Source of the DNA: an uncultured Porphyromonadaceae bacterium
GTDB lineage: Bacteria; Bacteroidota; Bacteroidia; Bacteroidales; Muribaculaceae
Assembly (NCBI GenBank): GCA_900541835.1
Contig: UQLL01000001.1
Coordinates: forward strand, 43,915-107,914
Direction: 5' to 3'
Length of the DNA: 64,000 bases
Shown here: positions 2,878 through 44,377 of the stretch, in pieces
Layout: every line of letters starts with the position of its first letter
How positions within the stretch are numbered: position 1 is the first letter of the stretch
Position numbers and translations under genes: made by a program
The notes under the pieces: model-generated
What the model was told of the DNA's origin: nothing
Database searches by the model: none
The model's input: only the letters and a program-made list of their open reading frames with translations

Positions 2878-3497
2878 AGCGGTGTGTAGACAAGTTTCTT
2901 GGTTTCGAAGAATGCTTCGGAGAAATAGTCGGTCAGCGGCACCACCACCGACGGGCGGCGACACTCCTTGAGTTCCTTCTCCAGGTCGCCCCCCTTGAGT
3001 GTTATCAGTCCGTTGGGCACGGAGTTCAGTCGTTTGGTGCGGATATTGCGTCGTATGGCCTTGAGCAGGTCGGCCTGGGGCATGACGGCGCGGCTGACCA
3101 CGAAGTCAAAGCGCTCGTGGCATTCTCCGCTGTCGCCGTGCTGGAAGGTGACGTTCTCCAAACCAAGTTCTGCGGCGAAACTGCGGGCTGCCTCCACCTT
3201 CTTGCCGATGCGGTCGATAAGGTGGAAGTGCGTCTGCGGGAAGTATATCGCCAGCGGCAGGCCCGGAAGTCCTCCGCCGGTGCCGAGGTCCATCACCCGG
3301 CTACCCGGCGCGAAGCGAATGAACTTTGCTATGGAGAGCGAGTGCAGCAGGTGGGCTGTCTCGATGTTCTCCACGTCGCGACGGGAGATGAGATTCACCT
3401 TCTCGTTGTAGGCGTGCAGGCTCTCCTCCAGTCGTTCCAGCTGAAGCAGCTGACGCTCGTCGAGCTCCGGGAAGTATCTGACTATCAGTTCTTGCAT
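2874..3497 (-). CDS. rsmG: 16S rRNA (guanine527-N7)-methyltransferase RsmG
   Basis: 207 aa with the SAM-binding motif DLGTGGGLPGLPLAI. Typical GidB length and order. Confidence 0.9.
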   Translation of the reverse strand: MQELIVRYFPELDERQLLQLERLEESLHAYNEKVNLISRRDVENIETAHLLHSLSIAKFIRFAPGSRVMDLGTGGGLPGLPLAIYFPQTHFHLIDRIGKKVEAARSFAAELGLENVTFQHGDSGECHERFDFVVSRAVMPQADLLKAIRRNIRTKRLNSVPNGLITLKGGDLEKELKECRRPSVVVPLTDYFSEAFFETKKLVYTPL

Positions 3498-3513
3498 TCT
3501 CTTGACATAAACC

Positions 3514-12894: not shown

Positions 12895-14223
12895 TCAGCG
12901 GTTTCGATGCTTGGCGGAATTGGTATACCTGGCGTAAATCTCGGCCTCGCGGCGCTTGGCCTCGGCTATGTCGGCGGCGTTCTTGGGGTCGACGCCATAC
13001 TTGCGCAGGTCGGGAACCACTACGCGGGTACCGGGCTTGATGCGGTTGGGATGCCCCAGGATGGCCTTGTTCTCCTCGTAGATGTAGGGCCAGAAGTGCT
13101 GGTTGCCATAGTGCTGCCGTGCGATGGTGGTGAGGTAGCGGGTGGTGCTGACGGTGTCGTAGACTTTTTTAGTGTCGCTGGGCTGTGTGGGCGCCTGGTC
13201 GCTTGCGGGGACGGATGCACCTACAGTATCGGGGGTGGATGCGGGCTTTGCTGTGTCCGGTGCGATGGTGCGTACGGGTGTGTCGAGCACTTCTTTCTGA
13301 ACCATCTGAACTGTGTCTGCATCCTGAACGTACCGAGCTATGAAGCGCGGGGTATTAGGACATAGAAGCAGAAGCAACACGGCGATGATGCCAATCAGCA
13401 GCAGGGCGCAGAGGAAACCGATTACGAACCCGAAGCGGCGGTGATGGCGGGCATGCTTACGATGATGGAGGCGAATCTCGTCCTCCTGCTCTATCTCGCG
13501 AGCGATAGGCGCTTCTATAGGACCTTCCTCCTGGTCGAGGACCTGCTGTCCGACATCTATGGAGTCCTCGGGGAGTGGTTCGGGCTCGGGGACGCATTCC
13601 GTCTCCGAAGCGGATGTCTCCTCGGGTTCGGACACATCTGCTATATATGTGCCATCGTCGGCGGGGTGTTCGGGGTTTTCCTTGACGTCTACTGGGGCGG
13701 ATGCACCATGGTGTGTCCCGACATCTCCCGCGTTCTCCTTGACGAATGGGGCTAAGGGCGCCAAGGCAGGAGCTGTCACGACGGTATCTGTTACTCCGGG
13801 CCCTTCCTCGACAGTGGTCTCGGGCTCCGGCTCGTTGTCCTCACGGCCGCCGGGAACGTGCGTAACCACGGCATCGGCTTCGAGCATCTCGTCGGTGAGG
13901 TCGTCGCTGAGTTCCACGGCCTCAAAAGCGGCGAATGGCTCGTTGACGGCAGCCGCCAGCTCCTTAGAAGGGACGAAGGTGAGCTTGGTGTGTGCCGACA
14001 GGGTGATGACGCGACCAGTGTTAACGTCCACGCTCTTGCGCTCGCCCATGCGCTGGACCTTGAAGGTGCCCACACCTTTGAGGCGCACCTGTTCCCCCTC
14101 TGCAAGTGAACTTGCAATGCCGGCAAACAATGCCCGCAGGAAATCGTCGACGTCACGGCGTGGCAGGCCGGTGCGGTCCGCTATCAGCCTACAGGCCTCG
14201 GAGAAAGTGATCTTCTGCTCCAT
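12895..14223 (-). CDS. HU-domain / transmembrane / LysM-domain protein (Bacteroidetes-specific HU-like fusion)
   Basis: N-terminal HU/IHF-like DNA-binding fold (about 95 aa), an acidic P/E-rich linker, a His/Arg patch, one TM helix (FGFVIGFLCALLLIGIIAVLLLLL) and a C-terminal LysM-like domain (YDTVSTTRYLTTIARQHYGNQHFWPYIY). Confidence 0.8.
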   Translation of the reverse strand: MEQKITFSEACRLIADRTGLPRRDVDDFLRALFAGIASSLAEGEQVRLKGVGTFKVQRMGERKSVDVNTGRVITLSAHTKLTFVPSKELAAAVNEPFAAFEAVELSDDLTDEMLEADAVVTHVPGGREDNEPEPETTVEEGPGVTDTVVTAPALAPLAPFVKENAGDVGTHHGASAPVDVKENPEHPADDGTYIADVSEPEETSASETECVPEPEPLPEDSIDVGQQVLDQEEGPIEAPIAREIEQEDEIRLHHRKHARHHRRFGFVIGFLCALLLIGIIAVLLLLLCPNTPRFIARYVQDADTVQMVQKEVLDTPVRTIAPDTAKPASTPDTVGASVPASDQAPTQPSDTKKVYDTVSTTRYLTTIARQHYGNQHFWPYIYEENKAILGHPNRIKPGTRVVVPDLRKYGVDPKNAADIAEAKRREAEIYARYTNSAKHRNR

Positions 14224-18330: not shown

Positions 18331-18363
18331 CTTGTATGAGGGTGTTGCAAAATCCGGCGAATC

Positions 18364-18387
18364 GTAGGGATGCACCCTGGTGCATCC
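18364..18387. repeat. REP-like palindrome GTAGGGATGCACC-CTG-GTGCATCC
   Basis: Perfect inverted repeat with the family core sequence. Confidence 0.8.
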
Positions 18388-18410
18388 GCTCTGCTTTATT
18401 GATTGTCAGC

Positions 18411-18434
18411 GGCTGCACCAGGGTGCAGCCCTAC
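18411..18434. repeat. REP-like palindrome GGCTGCACC-AGG-GTGCAGCCCTAC
   Basis: Perfect inverted repeat, a variant of the family. Confidence 0.75.
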
Positions 18435-18483
18435 AATCTGACCGAAATTCTGAATTTTGACACACCCTCGTGAGAGTTGAGAA

Positions 18484-21594: not shown

Positions 21595-21619
21595 GGACGC
21601 ACCGTGGCGCGTCCCTACA
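21595..21619. repeat. REP-like palindrome GGACGCACC-GTG-GCGCGTCCCTACA
   Basis: Family member in the intergenic gap between the small membrane protein gene and bcp. Confidence 0.75.
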
Positions 21620-23629: not shown

Positions 23630-23653
23630 GTAGGGACGCACCCTGGTGCGTCC
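23630..23653. repeat. REP-like palindrome GTAGGGACGCACC-CTG-GTGCGTCC
   Basis: Perfect 11-bp arms. First member of an inverted doublet. Confidence 0.85.
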
Positions 23654-23683
23654 GAAAGAGAGTCAGAGTTGTTGTCGGTGGTG

Positions 23684-23707
23684 GACGCGTTAGGGTGCGT
23701 CCCTACA
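23684..23707. repeat. REP-like element GGACGCGTTAGGGTGCGTCCCTACA (degenerate left arm)
   Basis: Second member of the doublet, 30 bp from the first. Resembles an E. coli BIME doublet. Confidence 0.7.
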
Positions 23708-28292: not shown

Positions 28293-28315
28293 ACGCGCCC
28301 CCCAATGCTGTGGCA

Positions 28316-28334
28316 ACGCACCCTGGCGCGTCCG
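28316..28334. repeat. REP-like element AACGCACCCTGGCGCGTCC (partial)
   Basis: Family core. Paired in inverted orientation with the copy at 28463-28487. Confidence 0.6.
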
Positions 28335-28462
28335 AGACCGACGCATGAGCCGCTCTGAAGCGGACACCAATAACAAACCAAATGCCTCGCCTGCCCTGAT
28401 AGTCGATACCGGGACAGGCGGGGTTTCTTATCAGTCCACTTTGGCCTTCTGCCGCCTATCAC

Positions 28463-28487
28463 GGACGCGCCAGGGTGCGTCCTTACA
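28463..28487. repeat. REP-like palindrome GGACGCGCC-AGG-GTGCGTCCTTACA
   Basis: Family member immediately upstream of the DEAD-box helicase promoter. Confidence 0.75.
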
Positions 28488-28535: not shown

Positions 28536-29963
28536 ATGAGATTCAGCGATACAGAATTGAACGAATTCGTGCTGGAGGCTGTGGATACCATGGGCTTCGA
28601 CACGCTTACCCCCATACAGGAAGCCTCCATACCGCCACTGCTCGAAGGACGCGACCTCATCGGCGTGGCCCAGACCGGCACCGGCAAGACGGCCGCCTTC
28701 CTGCTCCCCGTGCTCAACGAGCTCAGCTACGGCGACTATCCACAGGAGCGCATCAACTGCCTTATCATGGCCCCTACCCGCGAGCTTGCCAAGCAGATTG
28801 ACGAACAGCTGCAGGGCTTCAGTTACTTCGTGCCCGTCAGCTCGTCGGCCGTATACGGCGGCAACGACGGCCCCGAGTTTGCCCGCCAGCGCCAGGGTCT
28901 CAAGATGGGTGCCGACATCATCGTAGCCACTCCCGGACGACTCATCTCCCACATCTCCATGGGATACGTCGACCTTAGCGAGGTCAGCTTCTTCATCCTC
29001 GACGAGGCGGACCGCATGCTCGACATGGGCTTCTACGACGACATCATGCAGATAGCCTCCTACCTGCCCCGCGACCGCCAGACCATCATGTTCTCGGCCA
29101 CCATGCCCGACAAGATCCAGCGCCTGGCAAAGTCCATCCTTAACGACCCGGTGCGCGTGGAGATAGCCGTCAGCAAGCCGGCCGAGAACATCCGCCAGGA
29201 GGTCGTATACCTCTACGAGACGCGAAAGCTTGATGCCGTCAAGGAGATATTCGCGGGCTACGAGGAGCCGGAACGCAGCATCATCTTCGCCTCCTCCAAG
29301 CTCAAGGTCAAGGAGCTGGCCCGCACCCTGCGTCAGAAGGGTTACAAGGTGGCCGAAATGCACTCCGACCTGGACCAGAGCCAACGCGACGAAGTGATGC
29401 ACAACTTCCGCAACGGCAGCGTGAAGCTGCTGGTGGCCACCGACATCGTGGCACGCGGCATCGACATCGACGACATAGCGCTGGTGATGAACTACGACGT
29501 GCCGCGCGAGGCCGAGGACTATGTGCACCGCATCGGCCGCACGGCCCGCGCCGGAGCCTCAGGCCGCGCCATCACCCTGGTCAACGACAAGGACCTCGGC
29601 GCCTTCCGCCGCATCGAGAAATTCCTGGAGAAGAAAGTGCCCGTGCTCGAACTGAGCTGCTCGGCCGATCTCAATGCAGGGACACACCATGGTGCGTCCG
29701 CCACCCGCTCCGACCGTTCCCGCGGCGACCGCCGGGGCCAGCGCCGCGGCAAAGAGCCAAACCGCAGAGGCCAGGAAACACCCCGTCGTAAAAGCACCAG
29801 GCGAAATAATGCCTCTGCCACCGCCGCGCCCCCGGCATCGCCCGATTCCGCATCTAAAGCAGCCAACCAGCCATCTACAGCCACTCCCGCCGTCGAAGTC
29901 CCTGCACAGCACAAGACCCGCCGGCGCCGACGCAAACCACAACCCAAGCCCACCCAGGAATGA
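28536..29963 (+). CDS. DEAD-box ATP-dependent RNA helicase with an Arg-rich C-terminal tail
   Basis: Q-motif, GTGKT, DEAD, SAT and HRIGRTAR motifs, then a basic low-complexity tail. A degenerate REP copy is in-frame at 29679-29699. Confidence 0.9.
29679..29699. repeat. Degenerate REP-like element GGGACACACC-ATG-GTGCGTCC inside the helicase coding sequence
   Basis: Encodes GTHHGAS in-frame within the disordered tail. Confidence 0.55.
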
Positions 29964-31747
29964 ACACCATACGCAATTTCTGCATCATCGCCCATATCGA
30001 CCACGGCAAGTCCACACTGGCCGACCGTCTGCTGGAGCGCACCAAGACCGTAGACGCCAAGGACATGGAGGCCCAGGTGCTCGACGACATGGACCTGGAG
30101 CGCGAACGCGGAATCACCATCAAGAGCCACGCCATCCAGATGCAATACCCCAAGGATGGCACTTCATATACTCTCAACCTCATCGACACTCCGGGACACG
30201 TCGACTTCTCCTACGAGGTTTCCCGCTCCATCGCCGCCTGCGAGGGCGCATTGCTCATCGTCGACGCCAGCCAGGGCATCCAGGCACAGACCATTTCCAA
30301 CCTCTACATGGCCATCGACAACGACCTGGAGATTATCCCCGTCATCAACAAGTGCGACCTGGAGAGTGCCAAGCCCGACGAGGTGGAGGACCAGATAGTG
30401 GACCTGCTCGGCTGCGACCGCTCCGACATCATCCGCGCCAGCGGCAAGACAGGCCAGGGAGTCGACGAAATCCTCAATGCCATCGTAGACCGCATTCCGG
30501 CTCCCCAAGGAGACCCCAAGGCTCCCCTGCAGGCTCTCATCTTCGATTCCGTCTTCAACCCCTTCCGCGGCATCATCGCCTATTTCAAGATTCTCAACGG
30601 CACCATCGCCAAGGACGATTTCGTGAAGTTCTTCTCCACCGGCAAGGAGTACCACGCCGACGAGGTGGGAGTGCTCAAGTTGCAGATGCAGCCGCGCAAG
30701 GAGCTGTCGGCAGGCAACGTCGGCTACATCATCTCCGGCATCAAGTCGAGCAAGGAGGTCAAAGTGGGCGACACCATCACGCACGTGCAGGAGCCTTGCA
30801 AGGAGGCCATCGCCGGCTTCGAGGAAGTCAAGCCCATGGTCTTCGCGGGCGTCTACCCCATCGACCCCGAGGACTTCGAGAACCTGCGCGCCAGCCTGGA
30901 GAAGCTCCAGCTCAACGACGCGTCGCTGACGTTCACCCCGGAGTCCTCGGCCGCCCTCGGCTTCGGCTTCCGCTGCGGATTCCTCGGCCTTCTCCACATG
31001 GAGATTGTGCAGGAACGGCTCGGCCGCGAGTTCAACATGGACGTCATCACCACCGTCCCCAACGTCAGCTACAACGTCTATACCAAGCGCGGCGAGAAGA
31101 TAGAGGTGCACAATCCCTCGGGCCTTCCCGACCCCGTCAGCATCGACCATATCGAGGAGCCCTACATCCGCGCCAGCATAATCACCCAGGCCGACTACAT
31201 CGGTCCCATCATGACCCTCTGCCTGGGCAAGCGCGGCGAGCTCATCAAACAGGACTACATCAGCGGCAACCGCCTGGAGCTAACTTTTGACATTCCCCTG
31301 GGCGAAATCGTAATCGACTTCTACGACAAGCTCAAGAGCATCAGCAAAGGCTATGCCTCGTTCGACTACCACATCCAGGACTTCCGCCCCTCCAACCTGA
31401 TAAAGCTCGACATCCTGCTCAACGGCGAGAGTGTGGACGCGCTCAGCACACTGACCCACGCCGACAATGCCGTGCGCTTCGGCCGCCGCATGTGCGAGAA
31501 GCTCAAGGAACTGATACCCCGCCAGCAGTTCGACATCGCCGTACAGGCCGCCATCGGCGCCAAGATCATAGCCCGTGAGACCATCAAGGCCGTGCGCAAG
31601 GACGTTACCGCCAAGTGCTACGGCGGCGACATCTCACGCAAGCGCAAGCTGCTTGAAAAGCAGAAGGAGGGAAAGAAACGCATGAAGCAGATCGGCCGCG
31701 TGGAAGTGCCCCAGAAGGCTTTCCTGGCCGTGCTCAAGCTCGACTGA
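29960..31747 (+). CDS. lepA: Elongation factor 4
   Basis: [11 protein letters not shown]-domain and the LepA-specific C-terminal domain. 595 aa. ATGA overlap with the helicase stop. Confidence 0.95.
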
Positions 31748-31770: not shown

Positions 31771-31818
31771 AGTTCAGAGTCGGATGATGCCCCGTTGTGC
31801 ATCATCCGACTCTGAACT
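31771..31818. repeat. 20-bp perfect-stem hairpin AGTTCAGAGTCGGATGATGC-cccgttgt-GCATCATCCGACTCTGAACT, preceded by TCAGAGT tandem units
   Basis: Lies between the convergent lepA and GT25 gene ends. No flanking T-tract. Confidence 0.6.
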
Positions 31819-32554
31819 ACCTGAGGTTATAGATAAGTTGGCGCCATGCAAGCTGCAAGCGCCACTTGAGAGGCTCCACGAAGCGGTCATAAGGATTGAT
31901 GGCTGACTGGAACTGTCCCGTGAAGCTGCCCTGTGTGGCTACTGTGGGGTGCATCCAGTAGTATCGTAGTTTCTCCTGCTCCAACAGGAGCCGATGAAAG
32001 AGGTCTATGGGACGGTCTATTCCACCACCCTCGGAATGTCTAAGTATTGACTCCGCTCCGGCCCGGTTGATGTAGTAGCAGGCGGCATAACGATCGCGAT
32101 CGCCCGGATATATGAGGATTCCGCGGCGTCGGCGGCTTCGCGGCACGAACCGCAGACGGGTGTTCTCCATCGACAGAAGCGCCGGTTCGTCTCCCAAGGC
32201 AAGTAGCTGCCCCACGGCCATCGGCATGAGCCTATCAAACCTGCGGCTGAATACCACGTCGTCCTCAAGCACCAGCGCTCCCGGCAGACCTCGTTCTACC
32301 ACGGCACGGCAGGCGAGCAGGTGCTTGTAGGCACACGACATAGCGGCATGGGTGAGGTGATTGTCTTCGGAGAACCATCGTGCCTTACATGCTTCGCTAA
32401 TGTCGTCATAGTCCCCGTCGAGGATGAACTCGAAATGCAGGCCATGCCGACTCATCAGTCTTTCAATGTGCACCCTGCGTTCCTCGTAACCCTTCCTGAC
32501 ATGCAATACGAAGACTTCGGGGATAGCCTCTAAACCTTTGGCGTTCACATTCAT
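31817..32554 (-). CDS. Glycosyltransferase family 25 (LPS/LOS biosynthesis)
   Basis: 245 aa with GT25-like N-terminal conservation (VFVLHVRKGYEERRVHIE...) and a DxD-like LEDDVVF motif. Confidence 0.7.
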   Translation of the reverse strand: MNVNAKGLEAIPEVFVLHVRKGYEERRVHIERLMSRHGLHFEFILDGDYDDISEACKARWFSEDNHLTHAAMSCAYKHLLACRAVVERGLPGALVLEDDVVFSRRFDRLMPMAVGQLLALGDEPALLSMENTRLRFVPRSRRRRGILIYPGDRDRYAACYYINRAGAESILRHSEGGGIDRPIDLFHRLLLEQEKLRYYWMHPTVATQGSFTGQFQSAINPYDRFVEPLKWRLQLAWRQLIYNLR

Positions 32555-36631: not shown

Positions 36632-36647
36632 AGCTTCAATCTGATAC

Positions 36648-36673
36648 GGACGCACGAGCCATGCGTCCCTACA
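36648..36673. repeat. REP-like element GGACGCAC-GAGCCAT-GCGTCCCTACA
   Basis: Fills the gap between the U32 start and the purF end. The CTA of CCCTAC is the purF stop codon (TAG on the minus strand). Confidence 0.7.
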
Positions 36674-43268: not shown

Positions 43269-44318
43269 ATGAAGACTATCAGCATCAAGGGCCTGCTGCT
43301 TGCGGCCCTGTCGGCAATATTCACGATACATCCCTTCTCTGCCCAGGAACCGCTCTGGTTAGGTGGCGACATCAGTGGCGTTAGTGCCGACGAGGCTCGT
43401 GGACGCAGCTTCCTCGACGCCGACGGCCACGACGCCGACCCTTTCCGGCTCATGCGCGACTATGGCATGAACGCCATACGCCTACGAGTGTGGGTGAACC
43501 CCATAGACGGCTTCTGCTCACCCGGCGACGTAGTGCAGATGGCCCTGCGTGCCAAGGACTTGGGTATGCCGGTGATGATCGATTTCCACTATAGCGACTG
43601 GTGGGCCGATCCCGGCAAGCAGAACATCCCCGAGGAGTGGCGCGACATGGGAGTCGAGGAAATGGCACAGGCACTGGCCGAACATACCCGCAACACTTTG
43701 GACCTACTGAAATCCAACGACATAGACGTGCGCTGGGTGCAGGTCGGCAACGAGACCACCCACGGCTTCCTTTGGCCAATTGGCCGTTTCGAGGAGAACC
43801 CTGACAACTACGCCATGCTCACCCAGGCCGGCATAGACGCTGTCAAGGAAGTATATCCCGAGGCCCAGGCTATCATCCACCTCGACAACGGCTTCGACCA
43901 GGAACTCTACGACCGAGTGTTCGACTCACTGGCTGAGCGCGGCGTGAAGTGGGACATCATCGGCATGAGCCTCTATCCCTACTGGGCCATGGAAGGGAAA
44001 TTCCGACCCGACGAGGACTCCACGCTCAATGACTGCATCGAGAATATAAAGCACCTCAAGGAGAAGTACGGCACCGACATCATGATAACCGAGATAGGCG
44101 TGGACGCCAGGGAGCCGGAGGCAGGCTACAACTTTATGGTCAAGACCTTCGACAAGGTCATCGACGAGGTGCCGGACGCTTGCAAAGGTGTATTCTACTG
44201 GGCGCCGGAGATCAACGCCGACGCCGACTACCACCTCGGCGCCTTCAGCCACGACCGTCCCACAAAGATTATGGACGCGTTCAAGTATGCATCTCGGAAA
44301 GCCGCCGGAACCCGGTAG
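43269..44318 (+). CDS. Arabinogalactan endo-1,4-beta-galactosidase (GH53)
   Basis: Signal peptide plus a GH53 fold with catalytic-Glu contexts (NETT..., ITEIGVD). Confidence 0.8.
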   Translation: MKTISIKGLLLAALSAIFTIHPFSAQEPLWLGGDISGVSADEARGRSFLDADGHDADPFRLMRDYGMNAIRLRVWVNPIDGFCSPGDVVQMALRAKDLGMPVMIDFHYSDWWADPGKQNIPEEWRDMGVEEMAQALAEHTRNTLDLLKSNDIDVRWVQVGNETTHGFLWPIGRFEENPDNYAMLTQAGIDAVKEVYPEAQAIIHLDNGFDQELYDRVFDSLAERGVKWDIIGMSLYPYWAMEGKFRPDEDSTLNDCIENIKHLKEKYGTDIMITEIGVDAREPEAGYNFMVKTFDKVIDEVPDACKGVFYWAPEINADADYHLGAFSHDRPTKIMDAFKYASRKAAGTR

Positions 44319-44352: not shown

Positions 44353-44377
44353 GGACGCACGGCCCGTGCGTCCCTAC
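44353..44377. repeat. REP-like palindrome GGACGCACGG-CCC-GTGCGTCCCTAC
   Basis: Between convergent gene ends. The CTA of CCCTAC is the stop of the minus-strand gene ending at 44374. Confidence 0.75.

Follow-up and report, generated by a model that had tools for sequence, protein, structure and literature searches.

Two minus-strand genes in the window, the 64,000-nucleotide stretch of Muribaculaceae DNA analyzed here, end on the TAG that lies in the head of an ordinary GTAG-type REP: purF, at its junction with a peptidase U32 gene, and a 410-aa TPR-like gene, at its convergent junction with a GH53 galactanase gene. Most likely, the TAG in the head of the REP acts as a working stop, the encoded proteins are left unchanged, and the supply of a stop codon is a by-product. 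The head TAG is regarded as the working stop of both genes because the REP lies flush against each gene end. An earlier sequence-only reading of these sites had identified both elements as REPs, with which the GTAG head, the palindrome, the copy number, and the dimers agree, and it had traced the minus-strand TAG stops of purF and of the gene at 44374 to the CCCTAC tail of the element, as the sequence and the ORF ends confirm. Taken as a whole, that interpretation is partly supported: the REP supplies the stop, with neither remodeling of the ORFs nor a preference for stop codons seen.

A GTAG-TYPE REP FAMILY IN THE WINDOW AND ACROSS BACTEROIDALES

The REP unit consists of an unpaired GTAG head, usually preceded by T, and a GC-rich palindrome with a 9-bp stem and a loop of 2–5 nt, and spans 25 nt at both gene ends (Table 1). 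Studies of E. coli REPs are said to place the GTAG within the REP that the transposase recognizes. Stems of the window copies measured 7–9 bp and loops 2–7 nt, and the core GGACGCA-N(3-12)-TGCGTCC occurred 4 times in the window, against 0.01 expected. When copies were scored at 20 fixed positions of GTAGGGACGCAC-loop-GTGCGTCC, the window held 11 distinct copies with at most three mismatches (0.05 expected) and 14 with at most four (about 1 expected). The head was exactly GTAG in nine of these 14, the other heads being GTCG, GCAG, GTAA, GTGG, and TAGG. Both orientations were present, as single units and as two inverted dimers (18364/18411 and 23630/23683) that fold as long hairpins of about -55 kcal/mol (z -7 to -8); the second dimer lies between a 434-aa gene and cstA. 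Most copies sit between unidirectional or convergent genes, and two of the 14 supply a gene's stop. The degenerate REP-like copy at 62940..62964 is located just downstream of the gene at 61163..62923. An Rfam scan of the whole 64-kb window returned no match at the gathering threshold, and a tRNA scan of the window was empty.

Table 1. Positions of REP copies, neighboring genes, and related repeats in the window (further loci where given).
Feature	Position	Strand	Remarks
REP, purF/U32 junction	36648..36672	-	1 mismatch to consensus; head 36669-36672
Palindrome of the purF-junction REP	36648-36668	-	GGACGCATG-GCT-CGTGCGTCC
purF, amidophosphoribosyltransferase, 626 aa	36669..38549	-	GATase Pfam domains and ortholog names
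Spacer between palindrome and U32 ATG, 16 nt	36632..36647	-	GTATCAGATTGAAGCT; matches no repeat consensus
Peptidase U32 gene, 592 aa	34853..36631	-	Pfam
REP, TPR-like/GH53 convergent junction	44353..44377	-	0 mismatches; head 44374-44377
Palindrome of the TPR-like/GH53 REP	44353-44373	-	GGACGCACG-GGC-CGTGCGTCC
TPR-like gene, 410 aa	44374..45606	-	ends ...ALLR-TAG; ORF listing, Pfam
GH53 galactanase gene, convergent	43269..44318	+	Pfam
Inverted REP dimer	18364..18434	18364-18387 +, 18411-18434 -	-54.9 kcal/mol, z -7.2; compensatory stem variants
Single REP	21595..21618	-	28 nt downstream of AhpC stop, convergent gap
Inverted REP dimer	23630..23706	23630-23653 +, 23683-23706 -	-54.8 kcal/mol, z -8.1
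Degenerate REP and REP	28310..28486	28310-28333 +, 28463-28486 -	upstream of DEAD-box helicase gene
REP inside HU-domain protein ORF 12895..14223	13699..13722	-	in frame VGTHHGAS
REP inside DEAD-box helicase ORF 28536..29963	29676..29699	+	in frame AGTHHGAS
REP inside dnaG ORF 55420..57570	56239..56262	-	exact consensus; in frame VGTHPGAS
REP over first ATG of ORF 51646..52731 (+)	51651..51674	-	
Degenerate REP-like copy	62940..62964	-	4 mismatches (about 1 such expected by chance)
MITE-like family copies	18339-18468, 60927-61050; L104:3973-4071; L051:1444-1617; L008; L109		

Two further observations concern individual copies. The odd stem position in three imperfect REPs (36648-36668, 21595-21618, and 28463-28486) can pair as G-U in the transcript that includes the upstream gene, whereas the opposite strand has an A-C mismatch there, a hint of RNA-level selection; the odd stem pair of the copy at 23683-23706 is oriented opposite to these three. 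The copy at 51651-51674 overlaps the first ATG of a plus-strand ORF that would start M-A-D-A-P-W-C-G-P, and the true start of this ORF is probably downstream of that ATG.

Beyond the window, the palindrome without its head served as the query in one genome of each species, which avoided pre-selecting the head. The scan yielded more than 112 loci, nearly all from Bacteroidales (Prevotella, Bacteroides, Muribaculaceae, Duncaniella, Mediterranea, and Porphyromonadaceae), many of them with paired REP hits. GTAG on the 5' side or CTAC on the 3' side accompanied 119 of 143 palindromes (83%), and in 118 of those it was present on one side only. T preceded the head in 80% of copies, and G followed the stem in 81%; position 36673, which the sequence-only reading had included by giving the element as 36648-36673, is this conserved T, the unit proper being 25 nt long and ending at 36672. 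Because of its copy number, one-sided head, palindrome, and inverted dimers, the window element is a canonical GTAG-type REP. In other Bacteroidales, the 50–100 nt on each side of the REP were 80–97% identical between loci (L009, L013, L019, L033, L038, L062, L069, L075, L078, L085, and others); judging from these flanks, the repeated unit in those genomes exceeds the 24-nt REP and is REPIN/BIME-like.

TWO GENES THAT END ON A REP HEAD

Read directly on the minus strand, the end of purF is CTC AGA GTG TAG, followed by GGACGCATGGCTCGTGCGTCC, GTATCAGATTGAAGCT, and the ATG of the U32 gene; the protein ends ...KDLRV, and its stop at 36669-36671 is the TAG of the REP head. The 37 nt between this stop and the U32 start had been described in the sequence-only reading as filled entirely by the element, which is not literally so, as the palindrome covers 21 of them, yet all of the 34–37 nt are extra relative to REP-less relatives. 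Ten codons past the TAG, directly before AGCT ATG, the 16-nt spacer has a TGA in frame with purF, which may be the ancestral purF stop. As RNA, the REP forms a 9-bp stem with one G-U pair that begins immediately after the UAG, and the 55-nt stretch that holds it folds at -20.3 kcal/mol overall.

The synteny of purF and U32 is kept in relatives, which allowed the junction to be compared with and without the repeat. All 120 of the PurF homologs listed end within 0–2 residues of ...YEGxxxxR, and those that are 78–87% identical to the window protein end ...RV, as it does. Two pairs of loci carry REP-less junctions (L116/L120 and L118/L119), in which U32 starts 0–3 nt past a TAA or TGA stop of purF: L116, with a PurF 87% identical to that of the window, reads AGA GTT TAA ACT GTG, the GTG being the U32 start, and L118 (85%) reads AGA GTC TGA ATG, the ATG being the U32 start. 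The window instead reads AGA GTG TAG, then the palindrome, the 16 nt, and ATG, and therefore holds the REP plus 16 nt as additional DNA. A strain whose PurF is 99% identical (L114) reads AGA ATG TAG and carries one stem mutation; the REP occupies the purF/U32 junction in all strains examined, with the stem mutation in one lineage. Because the REP-less orthologs stop at the identical residue, the C-terminus of PurF appears to be ancestral, and a previously abutting stop/start junction appears to have gained about 34–37 nt. The only candidate for a target-site duplication at purF, read by eye, was the direct repeat TCAGAGTGTAG / TCAGATTGAAG, matching at 9 of 11 positions, which is within chance (about 0.05 by a rough estimate that allows for the choice of offset).

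At the second site, the minus strand reads CTG CTC AGG TAG, then GGACGCACGGGCCGTGCGTCC and GAAACG, and the stop of the 410-aa gene (44374-44376) is again the TAG of the REP head. The convergent GH53 gene also stops on TAG, 55 nt from the stop of the 410-aa gene, and a 70-nt stretch with the REP folds at -30.2 kcal/mol overall and contains the 9-bp stem-loop. The 410-aa gene can be considered real because a called ortholog, 79% identical, exists at L120:171-1349; it ends LLK-TAG and lacks the REP. This locus, from the relative at 87% identity, reads CTG CTC AAA TAG, followed by an unrelated spacer with no REP, and its gap to GH53 measures 52 nt against 55 nt in the window. Because a REP-less TAG is already there and the spacers are of similar length yet unalignable, the 44374 site is, by this comparison, not a clean insertion. 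The two sites also differ in stop identity: the purF relatives have TAA or TGA where the window has TAG, whereas the relative of the 410-aa gene already has TAG. The sequence-only reading had proposed that the element inserted at 3' ends and lent its own sequence as the terminal codon, and it had suggested comparing C-termini with REP-less orthologs; taken to mean a remodeled ORF, the proposal is contradicted by that comparison for both genes, since the orthologs end at the same residue (PurF ...RV; LLK against LLR), the outcome which that reading had itself named as a refutation.

We then tallied stops at 122 distinct perfect headed 24-nt copies from many Bacteroidales genomes plus the window, using ORFs of at least 100 codons as a proxy for genes. 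No such ORF runs up to 103 of the 122 copies. The head TAG was the stop of a long ORF at 3 copies, against 7 copies reached by long ORFs in frame 1 and 11 reached in frame 3, and the stops of co-oriented long ORFs were spread over offsets of -150 to -6 nt, with the 3 at offset 0. A slight accumulation at offset 0 is to be expected, since any ORF arriving at the head in frame 2 is stopped there. By this proxy analysis of ORF lengths, no genome-wide preference of the REP for stop codons was seen, so that the preferential insertion at stop codons offered as an alternative in the sequence-only reading finds no support.

REPs INSIDE PROTEINS AND STRAIN POLYMORPHISM

Three window REPs lie inside ORFs (DnaG, HU-like, and DEAD-box), all in the head-sense orientation and in one frame, reading V/A-G-T-H-P/H-G-A-S. 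They are located in linkers or tails outside Pfam domains, the dnaG copy in a variable linker. Among 120 listed DnaG homologs, the VGTHPGAS motif was confined to the window species, and in the alignment of DnaG orthologs this linker was hypervariable, leaving the boundaries of the REP insertion undefinable. The same REP reading frame recurs in other genomes. On two contigs of Mediterranea massiliensis (L076:7114-7234 and L079:7099-7232), an inverted REP pair lies in an ORF of about 780 codons that reads ...VGTHHGAS... and, further on, ...DAPWCVP...; the MAG of an uncultured Bacteroides sp. (L046, near 3478-3502) has a single REP at the homologous place of a similar ORF.

Polymorphism among closely related strains was found at 18339-18468 of the window. 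Half of eleven strains (99.4% identical) carry there a 130-nt element with terminal inverted repeats enclosing the REP dimer, and the other half have, at the identical junction CTCAC^ATACAAG, only a 20-nt REP palindrome whose GTAT head comes from the flank (L121:8246-8263 and L202/L203/L205/L207/L210); L204 matches the window at 100% identity along 20 kb. The window derives from human-gut metagenomes, and one member of the 90% cluster that includes its AhpC protein bears the name Lepagella sp. The 130-nt element belongs to a second, MITE-like repeat family bounded by 16-bp terminal inverted repeats (GAGGGTGTGTCAAAAT...ATTTTGACACACCCTC), the interior of which varies and sometimes includes a REP, and this family is present in several Bacteroidales genomes (Table 1). 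The 24–25-nt REP unit itself was rejected as a MITE, having no terminal inverted repeats beyond its own stem. Other searches for empty sites were less informative: the surroundings of cstA in 80 metagenome loci were mostly REP-free and too diverged to align (upstream gene 24–31% identical), the DEAD-box and HU orthologs showed no synteny in these 80 loci, and a paired-flank BLAST among all loci recovered only filled sites. A different long perfect palindrome, TTCAGAGTCGGATGATGC...GCATCATCCGACTCTGAA, at 31774-31816 fills the convergent gap between the genes at 29960..31747 (+) and 31817..32554 (-), begins directly after the TAG stop of the latter, and looks like a bidirectional terminator or another repeat.

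RAYT-LIKE GENES NEAR THE REPs

REP/RAYT systems and REPINs were reportedly treated by Bertels and Rainey in 2011. Regular expressions for RAYT motifs matched nothing in the first 112 loci, and no RAYT gene was seen within the 64-kb window or the strain loci of about 20 kb. When the E. coli RayT sequence was used as a phmmer query on every ORF of the REP loci, L047 proved to encode a 144-aa HUH protein, with a REP dimer 65 nt away. Three further RAYT-like genes were found: one in L213 with a REP cluster upstream and a dimer downstream, one in L215 with dimers of a sister REP on both sides, and one at L182:1-466 (-) with an in-frame REP right after the HUH motif (PNHLHIVIA-VGTRHGAS-A). The RAYT-like proteins show PNHVH, WQ, and a C-terminal Y-I motif, and reach E = 5.7e-4 (20.4 bits, cut-off 23) against Pfam Y1_Tnp; among NCBIfam models, REP_Tyr_transpos scores best (E = 5.4e-16, 58.8 bits, below the curated cut-off of 80). 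More than 2,400 proteins belong to this family, and JGI names one of them RayT; the source-named members are few and all from Bacteroidales (Muribaculaceae, Paramuribaculum, Bacteroides, and Paludibacteraceae). The peptide (V/A)GTH(P/H)GAS occurs in 8 of 120 listed RAYT-like homologs, mostly near the annotated N-terminus.

Judged by gene neighborhood, the REP family is putatively associated with RAYT-like HUH/Y1 transposases in related Bacteroidales. As in described REP/RAYT systems (Nunvar 2010, PMC2817692; Quentin 2018, PMC6006769), the HUH/Y1 transposase-like genes in L213, L215, and L047 have REPs of the same family next to them, as singles or dimers. RAYT subclass 2.4 is abundant in Bacteroidetes, has canonical REPs, and shows frequent REP insertions in the transposase gene (Quentin et al. 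2018, PMC6006769), and the L047, L182, L213, and L215 genes appear to match it as described there; the REP inside the L182 gene in particular resembles this subclass, known from Bacteroidetes and Cyanobacteria. The present case departs from those systems in that no such gene was seen in the window or the strain loci, the NCBIfam score stays under its cut-off, and the protein is a putative transposase by sequence.

DISCUSSION

We propose that the stop codons arose as a consequence of where the REP can be tolerated. A sense-oriented REP with its head in frame 2 of an upstream ORF would necessarily end that ORF on its own TAG. The ancestral purF junction would have been abutting, as ..GTC TGA ATG.. 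or ..GTT TAA ACT GTG.., and the REP plus 16 nt would have been added to it; at so tight a junction, only insertions that spare both ORFs would survive, and an in-frame head TAG would spare them, whereas its absence would extend PurF by 11 residues, as far as the following in-frame TGA. The provision of a stop would then be a by-product of the head sequence and purifying selection, with no dedicated function. Effects of the hairpin are conceivable nonetheless: by analogy with E. coli REPs, a hairpin 0 nt past the stop may slow terminating ribosomes, and it may also protect the upstream mRNA from 3' exonucleases or uncouple the translation of purF and U32.

One alternative, which we consider unlikely, is that the mobile unit comprises only the hairpin of about 20 nt and inserts 3' of (T)GTA(G/T), so that the REP would simply have settled behind a stop codon inherited from the ancestor. 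Transposition would be RAYT-driven and IS200/IS605-like, G-TAG stops would be preferred docking sites, and REPs would home to gene ends without damaging them; if true, this would explain the flush overlap with the stop and the GTAT-headed strain allele. In its favor, the TAG stands at the same position in the REP-less ortholog of the 410-aa gene, the purF end GTG TAG gives the full TGTAG, and the bare 20-nt palindrome at CTCAC^ATACAAG has a GTAT head whose T and G belong to flank shared with the other allele. A rough estimate that a few percent of genomic GTAGs would be stops also fits the 2.5–10% of copies found at stops. Against it, the strain polymorphism comes from a single clean site, and the REP-less purF relatives have TAA or TGA rather than TAG. 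Moreover, the three intragenic window copies are 24 nt long including the head and keep the frame, which a 20-nt insert would break; insert length was tested on window copies only, the pattern for cross-species copies having been fixed at 24 nt. In E. coli, the GTAG is likewise taken as part of the REP that the transposase recognizes (PMC6006769).

A second alternative, to which we give a rather low probability, is that the stop-flush hairpin is a selected regulatory device, kept for ribosome stalling, 3' protection of the mRNA, or uncoupling of purF and U32. The purF copy is fixed in every strain examined, a single lineage having one mutated stem position, and where its stem is imperfect the mRNA-sense strand has a G-U pair, both of which would suit a functional RNA hairpin. 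E. coli offers a precedent: REPs located no more than 15 nt from a stop codon reportedly cause ribosome stalling and reduced expression of the upstream gene (Liang, Rudd & Deutscher 2015, as summarized in PMC12306157). The shared trait is a stable hairpin immediately 3' of the stop, here at distance 0; the present case differs in concerning another organism, in having the stop codon inside the repeat unit, and in being known from sequence. Against such a role, relatives at 85–87% identity manage with an abutting junction and no REP, the hairpin lies within 15 nt of a long-ORF stop in only about 12% of sampled copies, and a neutral insertion, too, would be expected to be fixed in a species cluster whose strains are 99.4% identical.

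The remaining candidates fare worse. That the REP landed in the 3' ends of the genes and remodeled their C-termini through a new, earlier TAG is very improbable: the head TAG would indeed stop any ORF entering in frame 2, and several ORFs elsewhere run into REPs in other frames and terminate soon afterwards, but both window proteins end at the exact residue of their REP-less orthologs, which refutes a truncation of PurF and of the 410-aa protein. Native intrinsic terminators that resemble each other by coincidence, with no mobile repeat family, would account for GC-rich stem-loops downstream of genes but deserve hardly any credence, as a T/U run follows neither hairpin (GTATCAGATTGAAGCT and GAAACGCGTTGTCGG come next), the purF copy lies between two genes in operon-like arrangement, with the following start codon 16 nt away, and the identical 24-nt sequence occurs in both orientations, inside ORFs, and in many genera. 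The missing U-tract, the copy number, and the anatomy rule out a Rho-independent terminator, and copy number alone rules out chance hairpins.

A by-product stop from an ordinary GTAG-type REP is in line with what is known of such repeats. The phenomenon is known already because Di Nocera et al. (2013, PMC3733652) state that GTAG termini often provide the TAG stop of flanking ORFs; they also report REPs inside genes, many of them replication and repair genes. Stop supply by GTAG heads having been described, the Muribaculaceae family is a new member at most. It shares with the GTAG superfamily of Di Nocera, De Gregorio & Rocco (2013, PMC3733652), which includes Pseudomonas GTAG-1, E. coli GTAG-3, and Stenotrophomonas SMAG, the unpaired GTAG at one end, the short GC-rich stem-loop, and the occurrence as singles and inverted dimers, as well as the position mostly between unidirectional or convergent genes near 3' ends, the TAG stops from the head, and occasional copies inside ORFs. 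In that survey (PMC3733652), the repeats of Bacteroidetes were of the CGTC type only, and the GTAG type turned up in Proteobacteria, Cyanobacteria, Chloroflexi, and PVC, whereas the window family belongs to Bacteroidales; with its stem (GGACGCACC/GGTGCGTCC), it is likened by anatomy to the superfamily, for which the survey defines 24 families.

The in-frame copies recall the Rickettsia palindromic elements and intragenic REPs as they are cited in passages of PMC3733652, being likewise read in one frame as a small hydrophilic peptide. With 8 codons, the units inside window ORFs are far shorter than RPE-1, and the likeness concerns the sister copies, not the two that supply stops. Mycobacterial MIRUs, reportedly described by Supply et al. 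in 1997, are said to lie at operon junctions with ends that overlap the flanking stop and start codons. They resemble the purF copy as small repeats inserted between adjacent operon genes but, unlike the window REP, are tandem units of 46–101 bp with small ORFs, lacking a GTAG head and a single tight palindrome.

As a discovery, the head-as-stop arrangement carries little weight, being in the literature already and leaving the proteins here unchanged. The analysis does document that a GTAG-REP/RAYT family is abundant in Muribaculaceae of the human gut and in other Bacteroidales, within a phylum for which the 2013 survey listed only CGTC repeats, and it shows a REP splitting a translationally coupled stop/start junction with neither gene harmed. 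The in-frame REP peptides in core replication and RNA proteins are of use to annotators and for the comparison of proteins across strains.
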